A stretch of 64,000 nucleotides of DNA, from positions 1,922,001 through 1,986,000 of the forward strand of contig NW_025963868.1 of NCBI RefSeq assembly GCF_023055435.1, read 5' to 3'. Both the position numbers and the translations under genes were made by a program. Within the stretch, counting starts at the first letter, position 1. The number at the start of each line of letters is the position of its first letter. The stretch is from Haliotis rufescens. Its lineage: Eukaryota. The notes below the pieces were generated by a model. The model had not been told where the DNA came from. It worked only from the letters and a program-made list of their open reading frames with translations, and did not search any database. Shown here in pieces: positions 3,435 to 64,000 of this stretch.

Positions 3435-3889
3435 CAGACATTTTCGAAAAAAGTATTAGCCGGACATTACAACCCGAGACCGTATATCATAACAAAGGAT
3501 ACAAAATAAAGAGCTGCAACCAGACTGACATGTGTTTTTGTTGTTAATTAGTGTGTACACTACTTGTAAAAAATATTTCCGGATCCCTGAGTGACAATGG
3601 GAAAGATCTTTTAGGGTTCCCCGGAGATACTCAACCCCAACTTCATGGGCCCTTGTTAATAACAGGGGGTCAGTCCATGGGACCCATGGAAATTCAGGCA
3701 CTTTATATATATAATTCACCTACCTTCAGCTCTGTTGTATCTTGCAGTCCAAAAAACCAGGACAGTAAGCCAGCCAAAGAAGACACACACACACACAAAC
3801 ACTGTCAGCTTCTCCTTGGTGGGACAATAAGATGACTCATTGATGAATGCAAGGCTGACGAAACTAGGTAGGCCACTGAGCTTGTAACA

Positions 3890-5508
3890 TCAACTGTTGG
3901 GTATTCATAAATATATCTCTATGACATCACACACCTGTTGGGTATTTCTTGAATACCATCTCTCTGTAACATCACACATCTGTTGGTATTCCAATAATAC
4001 CATCACTATAACATCACACATCTGTTGGGTATTCCTAGAATACCATCTCACTGTAACATCACACATCTGTTGGGTATTCCTAGAATACCATCTCACTGTA
4101 ACATCACACATCTGTTGGGTATTCCTAGAATACCATCTCTGTAACATCACACACCTGGTGGGTATTCCTAGAATAACATCTCTGTAACATCACACGCCTG
4201 TTGGGTATTCCTAGAATACCATCTCTGTAACATCACACGCCTGTTGGGTATTCCTAGAATAACATCTCTGTAACATCACACACCTGGTGGGTATTCCTAG
4301 AATACCATCTCACTGTAACATCACACATCTGTTGGGTATTCCTAGAATACCATCTCACTGTATCATCACACATCTGTTGGGTATTCCTAGAATACCATCT
4401 CTGTAACATCACACACCTGGTGGGTATTCCTAGAATAACATCTCTGTAACATCACACGCCTGTTGGGTATTCCTAGAATACCATCTCTGTAACATCACAC
4501 GCCTGTTGGGAATTCCTAGAATAACATCTCTGTAACATCACACACCTGGTGGGTATTCCTAGAATACCATCTCACTGTAACATCACTCACCTGGTGGGTA
4601 TTCCTAGAATACCATCTCTGTAACATCACACACCTGGTGGGTATTCCTAGAATACCATCTCACTGTAACATCACACCTCTGTTGGGTATTCCTAGGATAT
4701 CATCTCTCTGTAACATCACACACCTGGTGGGTATTCCTAGAATACCATTTCACTGTAACATCACACATCTGCTTGGTATTCCTAGGATACCATCCCACTG
4801 TAACATCACACATCTGTTGGGTATTCCTAGAATACCATCTCTATAACATCACACATCTGGTTGGTATTCCTAGAATACCATCTCACTGTAACATCACACT
4901 TTTGTTGGGTATTCCTAGAATACCATCTCTGTAACATCACACATCTGTTGGTATTCCATGAATACCATCTCTGTAACATCACATATCTGTTGGGTATTCC
5001 TAGAATACCATCTCTGTAACATCGCACACCTGGTGGGTATTCCTAGAATACCATCTCTGTAACATCACACACCTGTTGGGTATTCCTAGAATACTATCTC
5101 TCTGCAACATCACACATCTGTTGGTATTCCAAGAATACTATCTCTTTAACGCCAAACACCTGTTGGGTACTCCTAGAATACCATCTCTCTGTAACATCAC
5201 ACTTTTGTTGGGTATTCCTAGAAAACCATCTCTGTAACATCACACATCTGTTGGTATTCCAAGAATACTATCTCTTTAACGCCACACAACTGTTGGGTAT
5301 TCCTAGAATACCATCTCTCTGTAACATCACACATCCGTTGGTATTCCAAGAATACCATCTCTTTAACGCCACACAACTGTTGGGTATTCCTTGAATACCA
5401 TCTCTCTGTAACATCACACATCTGTTGGTATTCCAAGAATACTATCTCTTTAACGCCACATACCTGTTGGGTATTCCTAGAATACCATCTCACTGTAACA
5501 TCACACAC
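3890..5508. repeat. Minisatellite, about 41-43 bp unit with internal palindrome GGTATTC-CTA-GAATACC
   Basis: Roughly 35-40 head-to-tail units of CTGTAACATCACACATCTGTTGGGTATTCCTAGAATACCATCT, no unique spacers. Confidence 0.95.
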
Positions 5509-5513
5509 TTACA

Positions 5514-5759
5514 TTGGGAACTAAAGAGTTTCCACTAAAGGTTGGACAACCAGTGTGGTTATATAATCCTGGGAAGAACCTCCCGTCCAGCAGGAAGTTC
5601 ATTACTCGCTGGAAGAAGGGATGGGTGGTCATCAAACAGATTGATGATGTGACTTACCGTATACAGGATGGTTCAAATAACTCACCTCGGGTTGTCAATG
5701 TTGACAGACTTCTGCCCTATGAGGGAGATGATCCTCCAACATGGTGGACTTCTCAGTAA
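5514..5759 (+). pseudogene. Gypsy integrase C-terminal (GPY/F, SH3-like) fragment
   Basis: LKVGQPVWLY...RKFITRWKKGWVVIKQIDDVTYRI...VVNVDRLLPY matches the typical Ty3/Gypsy pol C-terminus. The upstream pol is replaced by the minisatellite. Confidence 0.8.
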
Positions 5760-6183
5760 TTCTCACATACTGTTAGTGTACTGTTATTCCAAATGAATCT
5801 GAAAACAATTATATTTCACTTGTTTTCCTACATATTGTCAGAGCCCTTTATACTTTAGTTTCATGAAGATATGAATATTACGGTTGCATTGTGGATGCAA
5901 CAGATCAAAATGTGATCTAGAGAATGTCTTGCACAAAAGTTGAATGTTAAACAACATATCTTTTAAGTGGTAAAGATTTAAAATTTAGGCTTGATGTAAG
6001 CTTTCTAAACTATTTACTGGATATGGTTGGTTGGTATGGGATTCACTCTAGTTCTCACTGAGGAAGCTGATGATGGATCATGATTCCTAGGATGTATCTA
6101 GAATATAGAAAAGTGATAAGCACTGTTGAAGTTACAACATATCTCATGCAGGCGTTACTTACTCCTTATTTGCAGTCAGAAGG

Positions 6184-7005
6184 ATGGCTGACATTCTCAC
6201 CCTGGATGTTGATGAAGAGGAGATCAAGCAATGGGGATCGGTGCATCCAGAGGTGATGGAGGGGGCGCCAGGAATGAAATTTATTAAATTCATACCAAAT
6301 ATGGACTGCCCTGCCTGCCTTGACACTAAGACATTTGCATCGCGACGTGACTTTGAAGAACATTGGGCGCGAACGCATCACAGGGTGCATAAATCATTTG
6401 CTTGCCCTGTAAAGAAGTGTCAGGATTGTCGCTCTTCACTAAAAAGTTTAAAATACCATATTGCGCACAAGCATTTAAATTCAAATGTTATTACCTCTCA
6501 GGTTGATAAGCTTTGCGCAGATGTGACTGTTGAAGTGGAACGAAATGAAAATTTCGTTGACCCTGGGGTTTACTGTTTGTCCTGGCAGACATGGCGTCCC
6601 CGGGGCAAGAGGGCGGGTAAGAAGGGGAAATCAGCGAAAGCATCTTCCTCTTGCTCTGCCCTGTCTGTCCAAACGTCACAGACTGTCACAGAACCTAAGA
6701 AAGAAATTGATTCAGTTCCTCTCAAATGTTCACTCCCAAATATGCCATCTGTGTCCGATCTGCAGATGGAAATTGCAGCTCTCAGAGAGCGCAATACTGT
6801 GATGCAGCAGGCTCTTGCCGCTCGCCATGGGGCACACTGGCCTACCTGTCTGGATATTCCCACAAACAGGCCCCAGCTTGATGAATTTATCGCCAAGGGC
6901 TGGGAGGCAATGGCCGTGCTACAGTCTGCCGAGGGTAGGCGATTTCAGCAGCAGCTTGACCAGCTATGTATATTGTACGTATTAGATCAAATAAATGTTT
7001 CATAG
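6184..7005 (+). CDS. Retrotransposon accessory ORF with two C2H2-like fingers and a coiled coil; C-terminus truncated or chimeric
   Basis: 273 aa with CPAC..F..H..TH and CPVKKC..LKYHIAHKH. Preceded by acceptor CCTTATTTGCAG (to 6175). The last about 14 codons come from the LTR segment. Confidence 0.6.
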   Translation: MADILTLDVDEEEIKQWGSVHPEVMEGAPGMKFIKFIPNMDCPACLDTKTFASRRDFEEHWARTHHRVHKSFACPVKKCQDCRSSLKSLKYHIAHKHLNSNVITSQVDKLCADVTVEVERNENFVDPGVYCLSWQTWRPRGKRAGKKGKSAKASSSCSALSVQTSQTVTEPKKEIDSVPLKCSLPNMPSVSDLQMEIAALRERNTVMQQALAARHGAHWPTCLDIPTNRPQLDEFIAKGWEAMAVLQSAEGRRFQQQLDQLCILYVLDQINVS

Positions 7006-7873
7006 TAATATTTAACAGTTATAGTTAGCTCCAGTGATCGGCTCAAATAGTGGTCGCGAATTGGACAGTTGCGATGAGTTGTCTCCCTTGAAAAGAGCGA
7101 TAGTCGATAAAACTAACGCATACACACGGTCTCGAAAAGTATGTAAAATAGCGACGACCTCAAAGGCCCGCGATCTACTGGTGCTTACGTCATCAAAAGT
7201 TGGGTAGTTTATTCCGGAATTGTTTCATGCTCTAAATCCACTAAAGTAAATATATTTATTCCAAAATACTTACGTAAACACCTTCCTGGACATGTTATTG
7301 AGTAGATTACATCCATCCTAGATAATGTCACGTCGTATATTTGGTGTTTAATCGCATTCTTCTCGCTCTAACTTTTGGCGTCTTCTGCTACATGTATTTC
7401 CGGAAGTGACGTCACCACGAATATAATCTCGTTCCAGAAACAGCAGACTCAACGTAAGTTGTAGTTTTTGGTCCAGCGAGTTTTTAGAAATTTTATAATG
7501 ATTCCATAGACTCGTTTACAGTTTTTTAATAACAATTACCGTGCAGCATTATTGGCTCTGCCTTTGCGCATAGTAATTATTCTTTTTCGAGTAGATTAAA
7601 TACAATTTGTAGAAATTAATTATCTAGAATCTAACTGTCAAAACTGACAAGCGTTAAAAATAGAGTACGACTTGCAGTTAGTTCATGTACATATTGAAAT
7701 TGTAAATGTCATTATTAATAAGAACAACAACAAGTAAAGATTTCAATTGATTTTTATTATTTGTTATAGTTTTCTTTTACATCCGTTTTAACAATATCTC
7801 TTGGAAACTGACGGTTGGGATGGGACTGAAAACATCCTGACAACCACGTTTTCCCCACCCCCAACCCGTTACA
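6964..7873 (+). mobile_element. Partial LTR (3' end ...GTTACA) with ETS-CRE motif and splice donor
   Basis: High identity to the reverse complement of 62565-63375. CCGGAAGTGACGTCAC at 7400-7415 and GTAAGT at 7454-7459. Confidence 0.7.
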
Positions 7874-8254
7874 ACGCTCATGACGTCAATCACTGGATTG
7901 AGTGGTCGAGACTGAATTATTTACAGATCGCCGTCTCATAGCTGGAATACTGCAAAGGGCAGCATTAAACAAAAAACAAACAAACAAACAACCAAAACAG
8001 GCCATTTCAACCATGTCGTGGGAGTCATCACTTACCATATACCAAAGCTACTGAAAGGAGAATGTTCAAATACAAAACTATGTATATAATTTAGAAGTAC
8101 TCTCTTATAACACATCCATCCAGGACAGAACAAGTTGCTGACCCCGAGGGAACACATCCCATCAATGGCAACCCAGAAGCTGATTGAAGCATTCATAAAA
8201 TCAGTGTTACTTAAGCCCTCAGCATGTTTGCCAACTCTGTTCATGTTTGTTTTT

Positions 8255-12414: not shown

Positions 12415-14175
12415 AAAGTAGTCTATATCACCAACATCCACATCACATATTCCCCGTATCAACTGTCTGGGAATACCTGTATTACAAAGTACCATAGAAC
12501 ATTCTCAGGAGTAGTCTACATCCACGGCACATATTCCCTGTATAAACTGTCTGGGAATACCTGTATTACAAAGTACCATAGAACATTCTCAGGAGTAGTC
12601 TACATCCACGGCACATATTCCCTGTATAAACTGTCTGGGAATACCTGTATTACAAAGTACCATAGAACATTCTCAGGAGTAGTCTACATCCACGGCACAT
12701 ATTCCCTGTATAAACTGTCTGGGAATACCTGTATTACAAAGTACCATAGAACATTCTCAGGAGTAGTCTACATCCACGGCACATATTCCCTGTATAAACT
12801 GTCTGGGAATACCTGTATTACAAAGTACCATAGAACATTCTCAGGAGTAGTCTACATCCACGGCACATATTCCCTGTATAAACTGTCTGGGAATACCTGT
12901 ATTACAAAGTACCATAGAACATTCTCAGGAGTAATCTACGTCACCCCCATCCATGGCATATATTCCCTGTATCAACTGTCTTGGAATACCTGTATTACAA
13001 AGTACCATAAAACATTCTCAGGAGTAGTCTACATCCACGGCACATATTCCCTGTATCAACTGTCTGTGGATAACTGTATTACAAAGTACCTTGGAACATT
13101 CTCAGGAGTAGTCTACATCACCTACATGCACGGCACATATTCCCCGTATCAACTGTCTGGGAATACCTGTATTACAAAGTACCATAGAACATTCTCAGGA
13201 GTAGTCTACATCCTCGGCACATATTCCCTGTATAAACTGTCTGGGAATACCTGTATTACAAAATACCATAGAACATTCTCAGGAGTAGTCTACATCACCT
13301 ACATGCACGGCACATATTCCCCGTATCAACTGTCTGGGAATACCTGTATTACAAAGTACCATAGAACATTCTCAGGAGTAATCTACATCACCCACATCCT
13401 TGGCACATATTCCCCGTATCAACTGTCTGGGAATACCTGTATTACAAAGTACCATAGAACATTCTCAGGAGTAATCTACATCACCCACATCCATGGCACA
13501 TATTCCCCGTATCAACTGTCTGGGAATACCTGTATTACAAAGTACCATAGAACATTCTCAGGAGTAATCTACATCACCCACATCCATGGCACATATTCCC
13601 CGTATCAACTGTCTGGGAATACCTGTATTACAAAGTACCATAGAACATTCTCAGGAGTAATCTACATCACCCACATCCATGGCACATATTCCCCGTATCA
13701 ACTGTCTGCGGATAACTGTATTACAAAGTACCATAGAACATTCTCAGGAGTAATCTACATCACCCACATCCATGGCACATATTCGCTGTATCAACTGTCT
13801 GTGGATAACTGTATTACAAAGTACCATAGAACATTCTCAGGAGTAGTCTACATCACCTACATCCAAGGCACATATTCCCTGTATCAACTGTCTGTGGATA
13901 ACTGTATTACAAAGTACCATAGAACATTCTCAGGAGTAATCTACATCACCCACATCCATGGCACATATTCCCTGTATCAACTGTCTGTGGATAACTGTAT
14001 TACAAAGTACCATAGAACATTCTCAGGAGTAGTCTACATCACCTACATGCACGGCACATATTCCCTGTATCAACTGTCTGGGAATACTGTTTCACAAAGT
14101 TACACAGAACATACTGCCAGTAGTAGTCTGTATTACCTACATCCACGGCACATATTCCCCATATCAACTGTCTGT
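12415..14175. repeat. 84/93-bp tandem array immediately 3' of the ZNF stop codon
   Basis: About 19 units. The unit contains TATCAACTGTCTG, the reverse complement of the gene's last codons plus TGA. Confidence 0.95.
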
Positions 14176-18568: not shown

Positions 18569-18621
18569 CTGAAACATACAATCCAAATCCATTAGAGGAA
18601 AAACTGTCAGTCCTCAGGCAA

Positions 18622-20552
18622 TATGACCTGAATAACTGAGTGGATATGACCTGAATAACTGAGTGGATATGACCTGAATAACTGAAAGGCTTTGTCCTGA
18701 ATAACTGAGAGATATGACCTGAATAACTGAGAGGCTTTGACCCGAATAACTGAGAGACTATGACCTGAATAACTGAGATATGACCTGAATAACTGAGAGG
18801 CTTTGACCCGAATAACTGAGAGGTTATGACCTGAATAACTGAGAGACTATGACCTGAATAACTGAGATATGACCTGAATAACTGAGAGGCTTTGACCCGA
18901 ATAACTGAGAGGCTATGACCTGAATAACTGAGAGGATATGACCTGAATAACTGATTAGATATGACCTGAATAACTGAGTGATATGACCTGAATAACTGAG
19001 AGGCTATGACCTGAATAACTGAGGCTATGACCTGAATAAATGAGTGATATGACCTGAATAACTGAGAGACTTTGACCTGAATAACTGAGAGGCTATGACC
19101 TGAATAACTGAGGATATGACCTGAATAACTGAGAGGCTATGACCTGAATAACAGAGCTATGACCTGAATAACTGAGAGGATATGACCTGAATAACTGAGA
19201 AGATATGACCTGAATAACCGAGAGATACGACCTGAATGACCGAGAGATATGACCTGAATAACCGAGAGATATTACCTGAATAACCGAGAGATATGACCTG
19301 AATAACTGAGAGTCTATGGCCTGAATAACTGAGAGATATGACCTGAATAACTGAGAAGATATGACCTGAATAACTGAGATGATATGACCTGAATAACTGA
19401 GAGGATATGACCTGAATAACTGAGAAGATATGACCTGAATAACCGAGAGATATGACCTGAATAACCGAGAGGATATGACCTGAATAACCGAGAGGATATG
19501 ACCTGAATAATCGAGAGATATGACCTGAATAACCGAGAGGATATGACCTGAATAACTGAGAGGATATGACCTGAATAACCGAGATATGACCTCAATAACC
19601 GAGAGATATGACCGGAATAACTGAGAGGATATGACCTGAATAACTGAGAAGATGTGACTTAAATAACCGAGAGATATGACCTGAATAACTGAGAGGATAT
19701 GACCTGAATAACCAAGAGATATGACGTGAATAACCGAGATATATGACCTGAACAACTGAGGAGATATGACCTGAATAACTGAGAGGATATGACCTGAATA
19801 ACTGAGAGGATATGACCTGAATAACTGAGAAGATATGACCTAAATAACCGAGAGATATGACCTGAATAACCGAGAGATATGACCTGAATAACTGAGAGAC
19901 TTTGACCTGAATAACTGAGAGGATATGACCTGAATAACTGAGAGGCTATGACCGGAATAACTGAGAGACTTTGACCTGAATAACTGAGAGGATATGACCT
20001 GAATAACTTAGAGGATATGACCTGAATAACGGAGAGATATGACCTGAATAACTGAGAGGATATGACCTGAATAACTGAGAGGATATGACCTGAATAACTG
20101 AGAGATATGACCTGAATAACTGAGAGGATATGACCTGAATAACCGAGAGGATATGACCTGAATAACTGAGAAGATATGACCTGAATAACCGAGAGGATAT
20201 GACCTTAATAACTGAGATGATATGACCCTTAATAACCGAGAGATATTACCTGAATAACTGAGATATATGACCTGAATAACCGAGATATATGACCTGAATG
20301 ACCGAGAGATATGACCTGAATAAGTGAGAGGATATGACCTGAATAACTGAGAGGATATTACCTGAATAACTGAGATATATGACCTGAATGACCGAGAGAT
20401 ATGACCTGAATAAGTGAGAGGATATGACCTGAATAACTGAGAGGATATTACCTGAATAACTGAGATATATGACCTGAATAACCGAGATATATGACCTGAA
20501 TAACCGAGAGATATTACCTGAATAAGTGAGAGGATATGACCTGAACAACTGC
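18622..20552. repeat. Minisatellite, 21-24 bp unit (ATATGACCTGAATAACTGAGAGG)
   Basis: About 80-85 units. Confidence 0.95.
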
Positions 20553-23089: not shown

Positions 23090-24625
23090 CAGGCCCGAGA
23101 CGATTCTACCTGCCATTCGGGTCATTCATGGACCCATACAAATTTGAAACTACGGGCCCGAGACGATTCTACCTGCCATTCGGGTCATTCATTGACCCCT
23201 ACAAATTTGAAACTACGGGCCCGAGACGAAATCTACCTGCCATTCGGGTCATTCATGGACCCATACAAATTTGAAACTACGGGCCCGAGACGAAATCTAC
23301 CTGCCATTCGGGTCATTCATGGACCCATACAAATTTGAAACTACGGGCCCGAGACGAAATCTACCTGCCATTCGGGTCATTCATGGACCCATACAAATTT
23401 GAAACTACGGGCCCGAGACGAAATCTATCTGCCATTCGGGTCATTCATGGACCCATACAAATTTGAAACTACGGGCCCGAGACGAAATCTACCTGCCATT
23501 CGGGTCATTCATGGACCCATACAAATTTGAAACTACGGGCCCGAGACGAAATCTACCTGCCATTCGGGTCATTCATGGACCCATACAAATTTGAAACTAC
23601 AGGCCCGAGACGATTCTACCTGCCATTCGGGTCATTCAAGGACCCATACAAATTTGAAACTACGGGCCCGAGACGATTCTACCTGCCATTCGGGTCATTC
23701 ATGGACCCATACAAATTTGAAACTACGGGCCCGAGACGAAATCTACCTGCCATTCGGGTCATTCATGGACCCATACAAATTTGAAACTACGGGCCCGAGA
23801 CGATTCTACCTGCCATTCGGGTCATTCAAGGACCCATACAAATTTGAAACTACAGGCCCGAGACGATTCTACCTGCCATTCGGGTCATTCATGGACCCAT
23901 ACAAATTTGAAACTACGGGCCCGAGACGAAATCAAACTGCCATTCGGGTCATTCATGGACCCATACAAATTTGAAACTACGGGCCTGAGACGAAATCTAC
24001 CTGCCATTCGGGTCATTCAAGGACCCCTACAAATTTGAAACTACAGGCCCGAGACGATTCTACCTGCCATTCGGGTCATTCATGGACCCATACAAATTTG
24101 AAACTACGGGCCCGAGACGAAATCTACCTGCCATTCGGGTCATTCATGGACCCATACAAATTTGAAACTACAGGCCCGAGACGATTCTACCTGCCATTTG
24201 GGTCATTCAAGGACCCCTACAAATTTGAAACTACAGGCCCGAGACGATTCTACCTGCCATTCGGGTCATTCATGGACCCATACAAATTTGAAACTACGGG
24301 CCCGAGACGAAATCTACCTGCCATTCGGGTCATTCATGGACCCATACAAATTTGAAACTACAGGCCCGAGACGATTCTATCTGCCATTCGGGTCATTCAA
24401 GGACCCATACAAATTTGAAACTACAGGCCCGAGGCGATTCTACGTGCCAATTCGGGTCATTTGAGGACCCATACAAATTTTAAACTACGGGACCAAGGCG
24501 AAATCTACGTGCCAATTCGGGTCATTTGAGGACCCATACAAATTTGAAACTATGGGCCCAAGGGTAAATCTACGTGCCAATTCGGGTCATTTGAGGACCC
24601 CTACAAATTTTAAACTACAGGCCCT
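23090..24625. repeat. Satellite-like array, 63/64-bp unit
   Basis: About 24 highly similar units of AAATTTGAAACTACGGGCCCGAGACGAAATCTACCTGCCATTCGGGTCATTCATGGACCCATAC, diverging at the right end. Confidence 0.95.
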
Positions 24626-25192
24626 AGATATCTGGTCTTGAAGCATAAGGGGATAGTGGTAGTTAAAAATCACCAAAAATTTAGATTTTTTCAAACGCAT
24701 AAAGTCAATATTTTGGTGGTTTTGATTTATTTGATTCGTACTATTCAAGGCAAATTTCCAAGAGCTTTCCATATATATCTGGACCCAACTCTTCACAGCC
24801 AAATGAGGTGCCTTAGACCTCTGGGCCACCCACGCAGGTAGACAAGGGTGATAATGCCATCAATCTGCCAACCGTTTCTAAAATACATTCCTGTACAATT
24901 ATTTTCATTGAAACACATCTGCCGAAGACTCAAAAACGGCAAAACTATTAAATTTTCAGATTGGACTCCATCAAAGGTTCAGTCAAAATTAAAATAATCC
25001 AGATTTTACAAGCTAACCTAAATTAACACAGTGAAAACATAATGCCGTAATAAGCACCCCCGACAAATTGAAAAACTCCCAGTTACAAAATCCTTTTCAA
25101 ATTGATGCCAAAACCACCAAAACCACCTTATTCATGAAACTAAGTCTAGCGGTTGACAGAGAACTCCCAGTTACAAAATCCTTTTCAAACAC

Positions 25193-37984: not shown

Positions 37985-38625
37985 AAAACCTGTCGGCCCA
38001 GTGTAAAACCTGTCAGCCCAATGTAAAACCTGTCGGCCCAGTGAAAAAACTGTAGGCCCAGTGTAAAACCTGTCAGCCCAGTGTAAAACCTGTCAGCCCA
38101 GTGTAAAACCTGTCGGCCCAGTGTAAAAACTGTAGGCCCCGTGTTAAAACTAGGCCCAGTCTAAAAACTAGGCACAGTGTAAAAACTATAGGCCCAGTGT
38201 AAAATCTAGGCCCAATGTAAAATCTGTAGGCCCAGTCTCAAACCTGTAGGCCCAGTGTAAAACCTGTCAGCCCAGTGTAAAACCTGTCAGCCCAGTGTAA
38301 AAACTGTAGGCCCGGTGTTAAAACTAGGCCCAGTCTAAAAACTAGGCCCAGTGTAAAAACTATAGGCCCAGTGTAAAATCTAGGCCCAGTGTAAAAACTG
38401 TAGGCCCAATGTAAAACCTGTAGGCCCAGTCTCAAACCTGTAGGCCCAGTGTAAAAACTATAGGCCCAGTGTAAAAACTATAGGCCCAGTGTAAAAACTA
38501 TAGGCCCAGTGTAAAAACAATAGGCCCAGTGTAAAAACTAGGCCCAGTGTAAAAACTAGGCCCAGTGTAAAAAGTGTAGGCCCAGTGTAAAACTTGTAGG
38601 CCCAGTGTAAAAACTGTAGGCCCAA
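37985..38625. repeat. Minisatellite, 18-21 bp unit (AAAACTGTAGGCCCAGTGT)
   Basis: About 32 units. Confidence 0.95.
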
Positions 38626-62564: not shown

Positions 62565-64000
62565 TGTAACGGGTTGGGGGTGGGGAAAACGTGGTTGTCA
62601 GGATGTTTTCAGTCCCATCCCAACCGTCAGTTTCAAAGAGATATTGTTAAAACGGATGTAAAAGAAAACTATAACAAATAATAAAAGTCAATTGAAATCT
62701 TTACTTGTTGTTGTTGTTATTAATAATGACAGTTACAATTTCAATATGTACTTGAACTTACTGCAAGTCGTACTCTATTTTTAACGCTTGTCAGTTTTGA
62801 CAGTTTGATTCTAGACAATTAATTTCTACAAATTCTATTTAATCTACTTGGAAAAGAATAATCACTATGGGCAAAGGCAGAGCCAGTAATGCTGCACGGT
62901 AATTGTTATTGGAAAAAACTGTAAACTTGTCTAACTAATCATTATAAAATTTCTAAAAACTGGCTGGGCCAAAAACTACAACTTACCTTGAGTCTGTTAT
63001 TTCTGCAACTCATTTGGAACGAGATTATATTCGTGGTGACGTCACTTCCGGAAATACATGTAGCAGAAGACGCCAAAAGTTAGAGCGAGAAGAATGCGAT
63101 TAAACACCAAATATACGACGTGACATTAATTGGGATGGATGTAATCTACTCAATAACATGTCCTGGAAGGTGTTTACGTAAGTATTTTGGAATAAATATA
63201 TTTACTTTAGTGGATTTAGAGCATGAAACAATTCTGGAATAAACTACCCAACTTTTGATGACGTAAGCACCAGTAGATCGCGGGACTATTTGAGCCGATC
63301 ACTGGAGCTAACTATAACTGTTAAGTATTCTACTATGAAACATTTAATTGTTCTTATACGTACAATATACATAGTTTTTACACACAAGACGTGTATGTAA
63401 TAATAAATAATCATATATTTAATAACTATTAAAACTTCAAACGATCGCTGGAACGTGGACGAAAACCGAAGGTCTTGATCGTTTTCGCCCGAGCCTGACT
63501 ATTACAATAGCGCCTTTTTTAAAAGAAGACTCGTCCCGAGTTAACATTTTTACATAAACATGGTATTATACATTGCATTTCAAGTAGCAAAAATTCTCAT
63601 CCTGTTAATAATTATACCACTTATAAATATTCATGTTCTTTCCTTCCTTTTTCCTTTTTCCTTAGCCCTTACAAGTTACAGGCAGTTAAAGGGGCACTGA
63701 TCTAACGCAATTCTCCGGACTTGTTGTTGCCTTTGTTATTGTTTTTTCCCCCGTGAGTAGCTGGATGATACGCTACGCAGCTGAGCGTGACCAGAGACTG
63801 GTCTACAGTCTGCAAGGACAGCTAAATAAACTTGGAGGCTGGAGGCAATATTTGTTTTATGCATTTTTGAACAGTTACACTGATTGTTTAACTGTGATCT
63901 ATAAAGATTTCAACAAAGGGCGCATGTTAATTAATTTCTTCAGCCTAAATGAACAGACAAAAAGAACGGCGGAGCTCATCGGATGTCGTCATTTGGAAAT
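62565..64000 (-). mobile_element. LTR copy (solo or 3' LTR), extends beyond the window
   Basis: Starts TGTAACGGGTTGGGGGTGGGG on + and is homologous to 6964-7873 up to about 63375. No TGG primer-binding site next to the terminus. Extent beyond 63375 is inferred. Confidence 0.65.

Follow-up and report, generated by a model that had tools for sequence, protein, structure and literature searches.

Retrotransposons with long terminal repeats (LTRs) are usually taken as simple gag-pol elements, and an open reading frame (ORF) that follows pol is usually read as env, which in the errantiviruses is expressed by splicing. Extra genes of other kinds are on record: that of one set of Drosophila elements is reportedly small, and Tas of the foamy viruses binds DNA and has an acidic activation domain; we know of no C2H2 pair in Tas. 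In the passages of the literature cited here, bdelloid LTR elements carry non-Env third ORFs, typically expressed from spliced messages (PMC5408684), additional ORFs are described in plant LTR elements (PMC7264820), and a non-Env extra ORF is found in Drosophila elements (PMC11952523). CERV, the accessory protein of the C. elegans Gypsy element Cer1, has five exons, three of them in the gag frame, and is a 517-aa protein with H, M and G domains and a possible C4 finger, for which the cited passages report no homologue outside nematodes (PMC10309623). Here we describe a locus in a window of 64,000 nucleotides from Haliotis rufescens (contig NW_025963868.1), in which positions 5515-7873 hold a Gypsy LTR retrotransposon truncated to its 3′ part. 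In the env slot of its group it carries a conserved accessory gene, termed ORF3, for a soluble, non-Env protein with two zinc fingers.

By analogy, ORF3 seems to work like the regulatory genes of complex retroelements; it is neither Env nor CERV. Its place, as third ORF after pol and ahead of the 3′ LTR, is that of the errantivirus Env as described, but it encodes zinc fingers rather than an F- or gB-type glycoprotein and has no hydrophobic segment (PMC13524379). It is likewise unlike the bdelloid third ORFs, given as GDSL esterases, DEDDy exonucleases and coiled-coil or transmembrane (TM) proteins (PMC5408684). With CERV, as far as that protein is described, it shares the traits of an accessory protein from spliced RNA, with a Cys-based zinc site, a candidate nuclear localization signal (NLS) and zipper helices; however, ORF3 has an ATG of its own and is read as one frame downstream of pol, with a C2H2 pair, whereas CERV shares exons with gag (PMC10309623). 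Tas, likened to ORF3 by description, provides a model, being a small gene close to the 3′ LTR through which transcription of the element is controlled, but it is a gene of enveloped retroviruses, which have an internal promoter (PMC7828637).

The plus strand reads, in order, integrase tail, spacer, splice acceptor, zinc-finger ORF3 and LTR. Contigs from four of the 24 listed runs were mapped, namely the likely-RNA runs X2, X17 and X19 and the DNA run X3; that X2, X13 and X17-X21 are RNA is a guess, none being recorded as such. The 3′ end of pol (5515-5759), encoding the integrase C-terminal domain, lies in a frame (5511-5759) that matches Pfam Integrase_p58_C (PF22938, E 1e-9) up to its stop at 5759, which bears out the Gypsy integrase tail recognized in the first-pass annotation of this DNA. 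The tail is 60% identical across 95% of its length to P0049 (six hits among 21 candidates), a 1384-aa protein with protease, reverse transcriptase (RT), RNase H and integrase in that order, which stands in for the lost pol, as gag and most of pol are missing from this copy. By the reads, the element begins at 5515 rather than at the 5510 first given: contigs of three runs continue upstream past 5515 into other sequence, and the broken edge adjoins a 43-bp satellite array (3894-5508). The AT-rich spacer (5760-6175, plus strand), which single contigs of X2, X17 and X19 connect to the start of the ORF, measures 424 nt from the pol stop to the ATG at 6184, in agreement with the earlier figure of about 420 bp of non-coding sequence. 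A Ginger-type DNA transposon was also considered. Ginger1 is a DNA transposon with a Gypsy-like integrase, terminal inverted repeats and no RT; here 5400-8200 contains no terminal inverted repeat and a long direct repeat instead, and this identity is excluded because P0049, the nearest long relative, has RT.

ORF3 (6184-7005, plus strand, 273 aa) is the gene in codons 1-260, and its last 13 codons are LTR sequence read after a deletion. The named full-length relatives are 280 aa long and the window ORF diverges from them after residue 260, confirming that the C-terminus is lost; the helical C-terminal region (6751-6963) is cut there. A single deletion at 6963/6964 took the last codons of ORF3, the polypurine tract (PPT) and about 130 bp of the LTR start, because a second LTR copy in the window extends upstream to a purine run and TGTAA. 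This second copy (62565-63506, minus strand, 942 bp, TGTAA...TTACA) contains the recurrence of 6964-7873 at 63374-62565 with 94% identity, and beyond it lie a PPT-like purine run (63507-63520), partly degraded, and likely internal 3′ non-coding sequence that leaves the window (63507-64000, minus strand), with no long open frame in the three frames checked. It thus has both the TG...CA ends and the PPT of an LTR retrotransposon. Past 6964, contigs of the three likely-RNA runs carry other sequence for 215-228 nt, and in X3 the sequence before the LTR is that of the second copy. ORF3 and the LTR at 6964-7873, though not read on one contig, very likely belong to one element. The alternative, already raised in the first-pass annotation, is that this LTR came from another element and was brought beside ORF3 by deletion. 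No contig was seen from the natural end of the ORF into this LTR, and the sequence upstream of the second copy exits the window at 64000 before any ORF, as such an origin would allow; we nevertheless consider it very improbable, as 6964-7873 is a genuine LTR that lies directly downstream on the same strand, with no primer-binding site (PBS) after it, a PPT-like run precedes TGTAA in the second copy, and the related element L002, described below, shares the TGTAA...TTACA ends and the ORF3-PPT-LTR order.

The 3′ LTR retained here (6964-7873, plus strand, without its first ~130 bp) is CpG-rich and ends in TTACA. As first noted, it has a donor behind promoter motifs: ETS/CRE sites at 7400-7414, a TATA-like box at 7420-7427 and GTAAGT at 7454, the sole donor-consensus match in this copy. 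The donor context is stronger in the second copy (AAG/GTAAGT), and this LTR differs from most copies just 5′ of the donor. A common host repeat lies directly 3′ of it, and neither LTR copy in the window is followed by a PBS. Depth in the DNA run was ~10 in the unique flank, 60-130 inside the element and 270-630 in the LTR, values that suggest several internal copies and a larger number of LTRs without giving a copy number. About 115 bp at 7052-7167 are present in only one of the LTR copies, and in X3 the form lacking them is abundant (depth 217); two LTR variants thus coexist.

The ORF3 protein contains two C2H2 fingers (ligands C42/C45/H60/H65 and C74/C79/H92/H97), the motif VERNENFVDPG (residues 118-128) and a basic, NLS-like stretch, RPRGKRAGKKGK (residues 138-149, 6595-6630, 7 K/R in 12 residues), all where the first-pass annotation had placed them. 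Residues 32-132 (6277-6579) form a finger unit, modelled by AlphaFold2 with a mean predicted local distance difference test (pLDDT) score of 85.6, in which an extra N-terminal strand precedes the two fingers. Profile searches match this unit to CTCF, AEBP2 and tramtrack (E 1e-7 to 1e-6), with CTCF aligning ungapped through the inter-finger linker; alignment, profiles and model alike give two C2H2 fingers with an aromatic/hydrophobic core, and the profile and structure check that had been proposed for the ORF returned a C2H2 pair. CTCF (2ct1), tramtrack (2drp) and AEBP2 share with it two finger folds and a matching ligand spacing; unlike classical C2H2 pairs, the pair in ORF3 is followed by a helix, a strand, an NxxF[IV]DPG motif and a further strand. 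Pfam gave no match to ORF3 above cut-off, and Foldseek against the PDB and viral libraries none at E 0.001 or better (top row for the whole model 2drp, E 0.08). The best VIA Z scores, 6.3 for the helices and 5.2 for the unit (43 residues aligned, rmsd 1.9, spanning only finger 2 and the next strand), are both below the telling level, and such weak scores show neither a new fold nor its absence; the best ESM Atlas value, 0.88 to unnamed clusters, is a lead only.

In the model of P0003, a natural full-length relative, helices are predicted at residues 190-213 and 231-274 (pLDDT 83-94 in most blocks), in line with the coiled coil read from the DNA; this helical region is conserved in P0007, P0009 and P0026, and a dimer prediction for residues 186-280 scored 0.07. 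Because the hydropathy maximum of P0003 (19-residue window) is only 0.67, the lost C-terminus hides no membrane anchor, and the earlier statement that neither a signal peptide nor a TM segment, and no fusogen, is present holds for the full-length protein. Env, tried as an identity for ORF3, was rejected on this hydropathy value and on the zinc fingers that stand in place of a glycoprotein. CERV was rejected as well, with no exons shared with gag and with the finger unit and helices in the model; ORF3 is set apart from it by the description of CERV.

A full-library search with ORF3 returned 32 proteins at E 0.001 or better; a word-indexed search found only a 98% relative. Named relatives that are 93-100% identical have gene annotations of their own, under three locus names in H. 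rufescens and as two proteins in H. cracherodii. Sixteen other stand-alone relatives (156-383 aa), the named ones from H. rubra, Mytilus (several loci, with clusters of five members) and Ostrea edulis, share one architecture: an acidic N-terminus is followed by the finger unit, then by a low-complexity linker and, in the complete proteins, by C-terminal helices. The two C2H2 fingers are not a chance pattern, since 20 aligned relatives at 17-33% identity show no or almost no change at any of the eight zinc ligands. Of 17 relatives, all 17 are net acidic over the N-terminal 35 residues and net basic over the finger unit; in finger 2, helix position 3 is Asp in 14 of the 17 and position -1 is Arg/Lys in 13. 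Larger proteins carry 2-18 finger units, two of them encoded by neighbouring Sinanodonta genes. In P0008, P0010, P0011, P0012, P0014, P0033 and P0035 there are 4-18 units, apparently an unnamed repeat domain in molluscs. P0015 is a fragment of the ORF fused to an N-terminal part that Pfam left unmatched and that we take to resemble gag; among 7999 candidates, no longer fused form was scored. P0016, P0029 and P0034 were rejected as true relatives, their similarity being due to generic fingers or a repeat. Scans with the ORF3 alignment found no locus in viral or metagenome contigs, and scans with the integrase alignment none in viral contigs. An isoform of P0056 (Ostrea edulis) is extended at its N-terminus by ~70 residues that follow the pattern C-x4-C ... 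C ... H, presumably THAP-like, and possibly represents another upstream exon spliced onto the acceptor.

Whether the gene belongs to the element is addressed by related copies. A scan with the integrase tail gave 10 loci (L001-L010) at 31-45% identity, of which L005, L006 and L008, with less than 600 nt after pol, were dropped and the seven with at least 1 kb kept. In five of these seven (L001, L002, L003, L004 and L009) a same-strand tandem-finger ORF3 follows pol, so that ORF3 homologues are linked to Gypsy pol, whose absence would have spoken against the original reading; the expectation that the ORF always lies downstream of pol holds in these five and fails in L007 and L010. The finger pattern matches L001, L002, L003 and L009, and on the gag/pol side it has 0 matches in 37,961 nt. 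The profile of the window's family matches L003 (E 1.9e-5), L004 (1e-3), L002 (3e-3) and, weakly, L001 (0.25); L009 is doubtful (C2HC-like, no profile match, no good acceptor). The order protease-RT-RNase H-integrase was read in L001 and L002. L002 has an LTR, a PBS-like stretch, gag, pol, ORF3 and a PPT between TGTAA...TTACA ends, and its LTR has three donor matches 75-155 nt downstream of the TATA box. An 18-nt PBS-like stretch is common to L002, L004 and L007 and presumably matches tRNA-Leu. In the integrase-tail tree, which is a hint only, as five of eight inner branches are open and the window row is short, the window tail groups with P0049-P0052 (94/94) beside L001-L004 (82/77), and L007 falls outside on a long branch. 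The ORF3s at L001 5925-7607, L002 7450-9516 and L004 6107-7537 also share a conserved ~150-aa C-terminal domain, with motifs G[CG]MP...PARR.W ... WPP ... FLALPGT, and a middle domain, neither with a Pfam match.

The splice acceptor recurs with the gene. In the window it is CCTTATTTGCAG at 6164-6175, 8 nt upstream of the ATG, as first described. In L001, L002 and L004 the AG ends 1 nt before the ORF3 ATG; L003 lacks an ATG, and its acceptor is in frame. A strict acceptor score is passed by L002, L004 and the window, with L001 short by one pyrimidine; a strong acceptor within 12 nt of the ATG is found in only 6-13% of all ATGs, although the elements are kin and the draws not independent. A GT..AG joint at 3865-6174 (cut +2, depth 13.3) lands exactly on 6176 in X2 and is absent from X17, X19 and X3. 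The acceptor at 6175 is functional in a spliced joint, because this joint is present in X2 and missing from the DNA run, and because the RefSeq model of this locus, P0004, makes the same 3867-to-6176 join, its extra N-terminal peptide being encoded at 3843-3867. Thus, of the spliced expression originally proposed, the use of the acceptor stands; the donor seen is that of a flanking exon outside the element, 3867, and not that of the LTR. This exon (3748-3867, plus strand, GT donor at 3868, X2 contig 3745-3867) lies ahead of the satellite array; the locus shows a host-side exon spliced to a transposon gene. The exon is single-copy, has its own ATG and is spliced in frame to ORF3, adding 11 residues.

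These transcripts bear on whether ORF3 might be a captured host exon with no role in the element, here merely exonized by a flanking transcript. The presence of the unit in host-like proteins, a sole sense joint that begins outside the element, and the lack of ORF3 in L007 and L010 are what such a passenger would leave behind. Yet in L001, L002 and L004 the ORF3 frames have remained open over 477-689 codons at 25-32% identity, with shared motifs and acceptor position, and abalone relatives at 33-34% identity retain both the fingers and the C-terminal helices. In addition, six of the 11 ORF differences listed are synonymous versus 22% expected (p 0.02), a weak count given that the list is partial (80 more exist), that two changes fall at one site and that one X19 contig has a 1-nt gap. 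We regard a passenger exon as quite unlikely.

As its putative role, we tentatively propose that ORF3 is a DNA-binding activator of its own LTR, a reading to which we give a little less than an even chance. Of the two roles suggested in the first-pass annotation, transactivator and silencing antagonist, both are still inferences. In intact copies, the LTR donor would be spliced to the acceptor at 6176 to give a subgenomic RNA for the ORF3 protein, which is likely nuclear. The protein would enter the nucleus through its basic stretch, pair through its C-terminal helices, bind the DNA of its own LTR and turn on element transcription through its acidic, disordered N-terminus. Default splicing would deliver the regulator first, and the regulator would then raise the output of genomic RNA. 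This proposal is based on the parts of a small transcription factor (acidic N-terminus, basic finger unit, basic stretch, helical C-terminus), on the CTCF, AEBP2 and tramtrack fingers as the closest solved sequences, and on conservation in finger 2 at base-contact positions, where L001, L002 and L004 have both Asp 3 and Arg/Lys -1, as in the aligned CTCF finger.

Several observations weigh against an LTR activator or against its generality. In the window protein itself, finger 2 lacks Arg -1 and Asp 3, and position 6 of finger 1 is Glu where most relatives have Arg; these base-contact changes would fit a change of target, yet they weaken the argument for activation. The basic stretch is not kept at its position in most relatives, and the main X19 contig across the ORF has a 1-nt gap. 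No LTR-donor-to-6176 junction is among the joints listed for X2, X17, X19 and X3, the sense joint seen using the flanking donor 3867; cover at 7422-7860 is little or none in X2 and X17 and carries no weight on this junction, and a TATA-to-donor distance of 34-42 nt makes the predicted first exon too short to map. No tandem-finger ORF follows pol in L007, which is apparently whole, or in L010. Comparison of the window family with the ORF3s of L001-L004 and L009 by hhalign aligns 55 finger columns only (probability 75.8, E 2.3e-5), and the C-termini differ between the two ORF3 groups, so that separate captures of C2H2 pairs are possible. Finally, the finger unit is fused to RRMs in P0023 and P0028 and to DUF7819 and a G-patch in P0035, which points to RNA.

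These fusions lend themselves to another function, in which ORF3, translated from the spliced RNA, would be a Rev- or CERV-like factor: by binding the element's genomic RNA inside the nucleus before it is spliced, it would protect that RNA from splicing or from being retained there. With the consensus donor of the LTR and the strong acceptor ahead of ORF3, gag-pol would be an intron, and the CERV of Cer1 is described as the product of a spliced RNA, nuclear and needed for export (PMC10309623). In addition, P0020, P0025 and P0046 start with L-D-Y-[DE]-E-E-E, which resembles the DDX39B segment (D12, Y13, E14, D15, D16) reported to bind TREX-2 (PMC12216326). However, the exact motif is present in only two of the 17 proteins scored and the window protein has Val for its Tyr, P0003 contains no pattern like a nuclear export signal, and the conserved residues sit on base-contact positions of the finger helix. 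An RNA factor of this type, which the first-pass annotation did not name, is in our view less likely than the activator, of which it is nevertheless the most serious rival.

The composition and antisense transcription of the element bring in silencing. Observed/expected CpG is 1.0-1.5 in the LTR versus 0.13-0.3 in the integrase tail and spacer. Antisense introns (5799-6494, minus strand; donors 6494 and 6162, common acceptor 5799) are marked by CT..AC joints at 5798-6495 in X2 and X17 (two studies) and at 5798-6163 in X2, with none in X3; their canonical minus-strand GT/AG contexts indicate spliced antisense RNA over the 5′ half of the ORF and the spacer. The unspliced minus strand there has no ATG frame longer than 74 codons, and the RNA may originate in the LTR or be read-through from a minus-strand host zinc-finger gene, the last large exon of which ends 6 kb away. 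Retroviral 3′ LTRs yield antisense RNA, of which these forms are reminiscent. ORF3 might then be a silencing antagonist, for which plant VANC proteins are a model, binding element DNA or a host silencing protein and keeping copies unmethylated and open. The CpG-rich LTR beside a CpG-poor tail and spacer, the host small-RNA pressure that spliced antisense RNA suggests, and the 2-18 copies of the unit in host-like large proteins, which allow for repressor mimicry or competition, would all suit such a role. A CpG-rich LTR is, however, expected of any promoter and our analysis cannot separate this role from activation; we hold a silencing antagonist to be unlikely.

Returning to ORF3 as a regulator of its own element, a broader reading is possible, which we put forward with more reserve than the activator role. 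An old Gypsy clade of marine invertebrates may have filled its env slot with a modular zinc-finger regulator expressed by splicing; its members would then be 'complex' retrotransposons with a Tat/Tas- or Rev-like gene. The finger unit, a C2H2 pair closed by NxxF[IV]DPG, would be an undescribed domain traded with mollusc host proteins, where it occurs in arrays of up to 18, and element and host may compete for a target. If so, this conserved spliced gene would join CERV among the few regulators of animal Gypsy elements, transposon genes would account for many of the 'uncharacterized C2H2 proteins' annotated in abalone, mussel and oyster, and there would be a route for zinc-finger units between transposons and hosts. 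Non-Env third ORFs are already known, and a C2H2 ORF3 in an animal Gypsy element appears to be new in the literature searched, which held no report of one; Repbase and Dfam lie outside that search and may list such ORFs. In the main text of the mollusc and annelid LTR surveys, 'ORF' and 'zinc' occur 0 times (PMC6238403, PMC8556966), as do 'zinc' in that of the env survey (PMC13524379) and 'zinc' and 'finger' in that of the bdelloid study (PMC5408684); the Troyka paper, as far as cited, has a gag finger only (PMC12440569).

Elsewhere in the window, minus-strand frames of 2554 and 1228 codons at 33236-25575 and 17850-14167, with 11 C2H2 matches each, likely form one large host zinc-finger gene with repeat-rich spacers. 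Minisatellite arrays occupy 3894-5508, 12417-14129, 18621-20551, 23090-24628 and 37985-38624, with periods of 43, 93, 23, 64 and 20, and both LTR copies adjoin arrays or repeats. Exons of an ABC transporter, presumably ABCC-like, with Walker A and LSGGQ motifs, are found at ~62130-62000 and 61154 (minus strand); just upstream of them and on their strand, a probably intronic 54-bp tandem array contains the second LTR copy.

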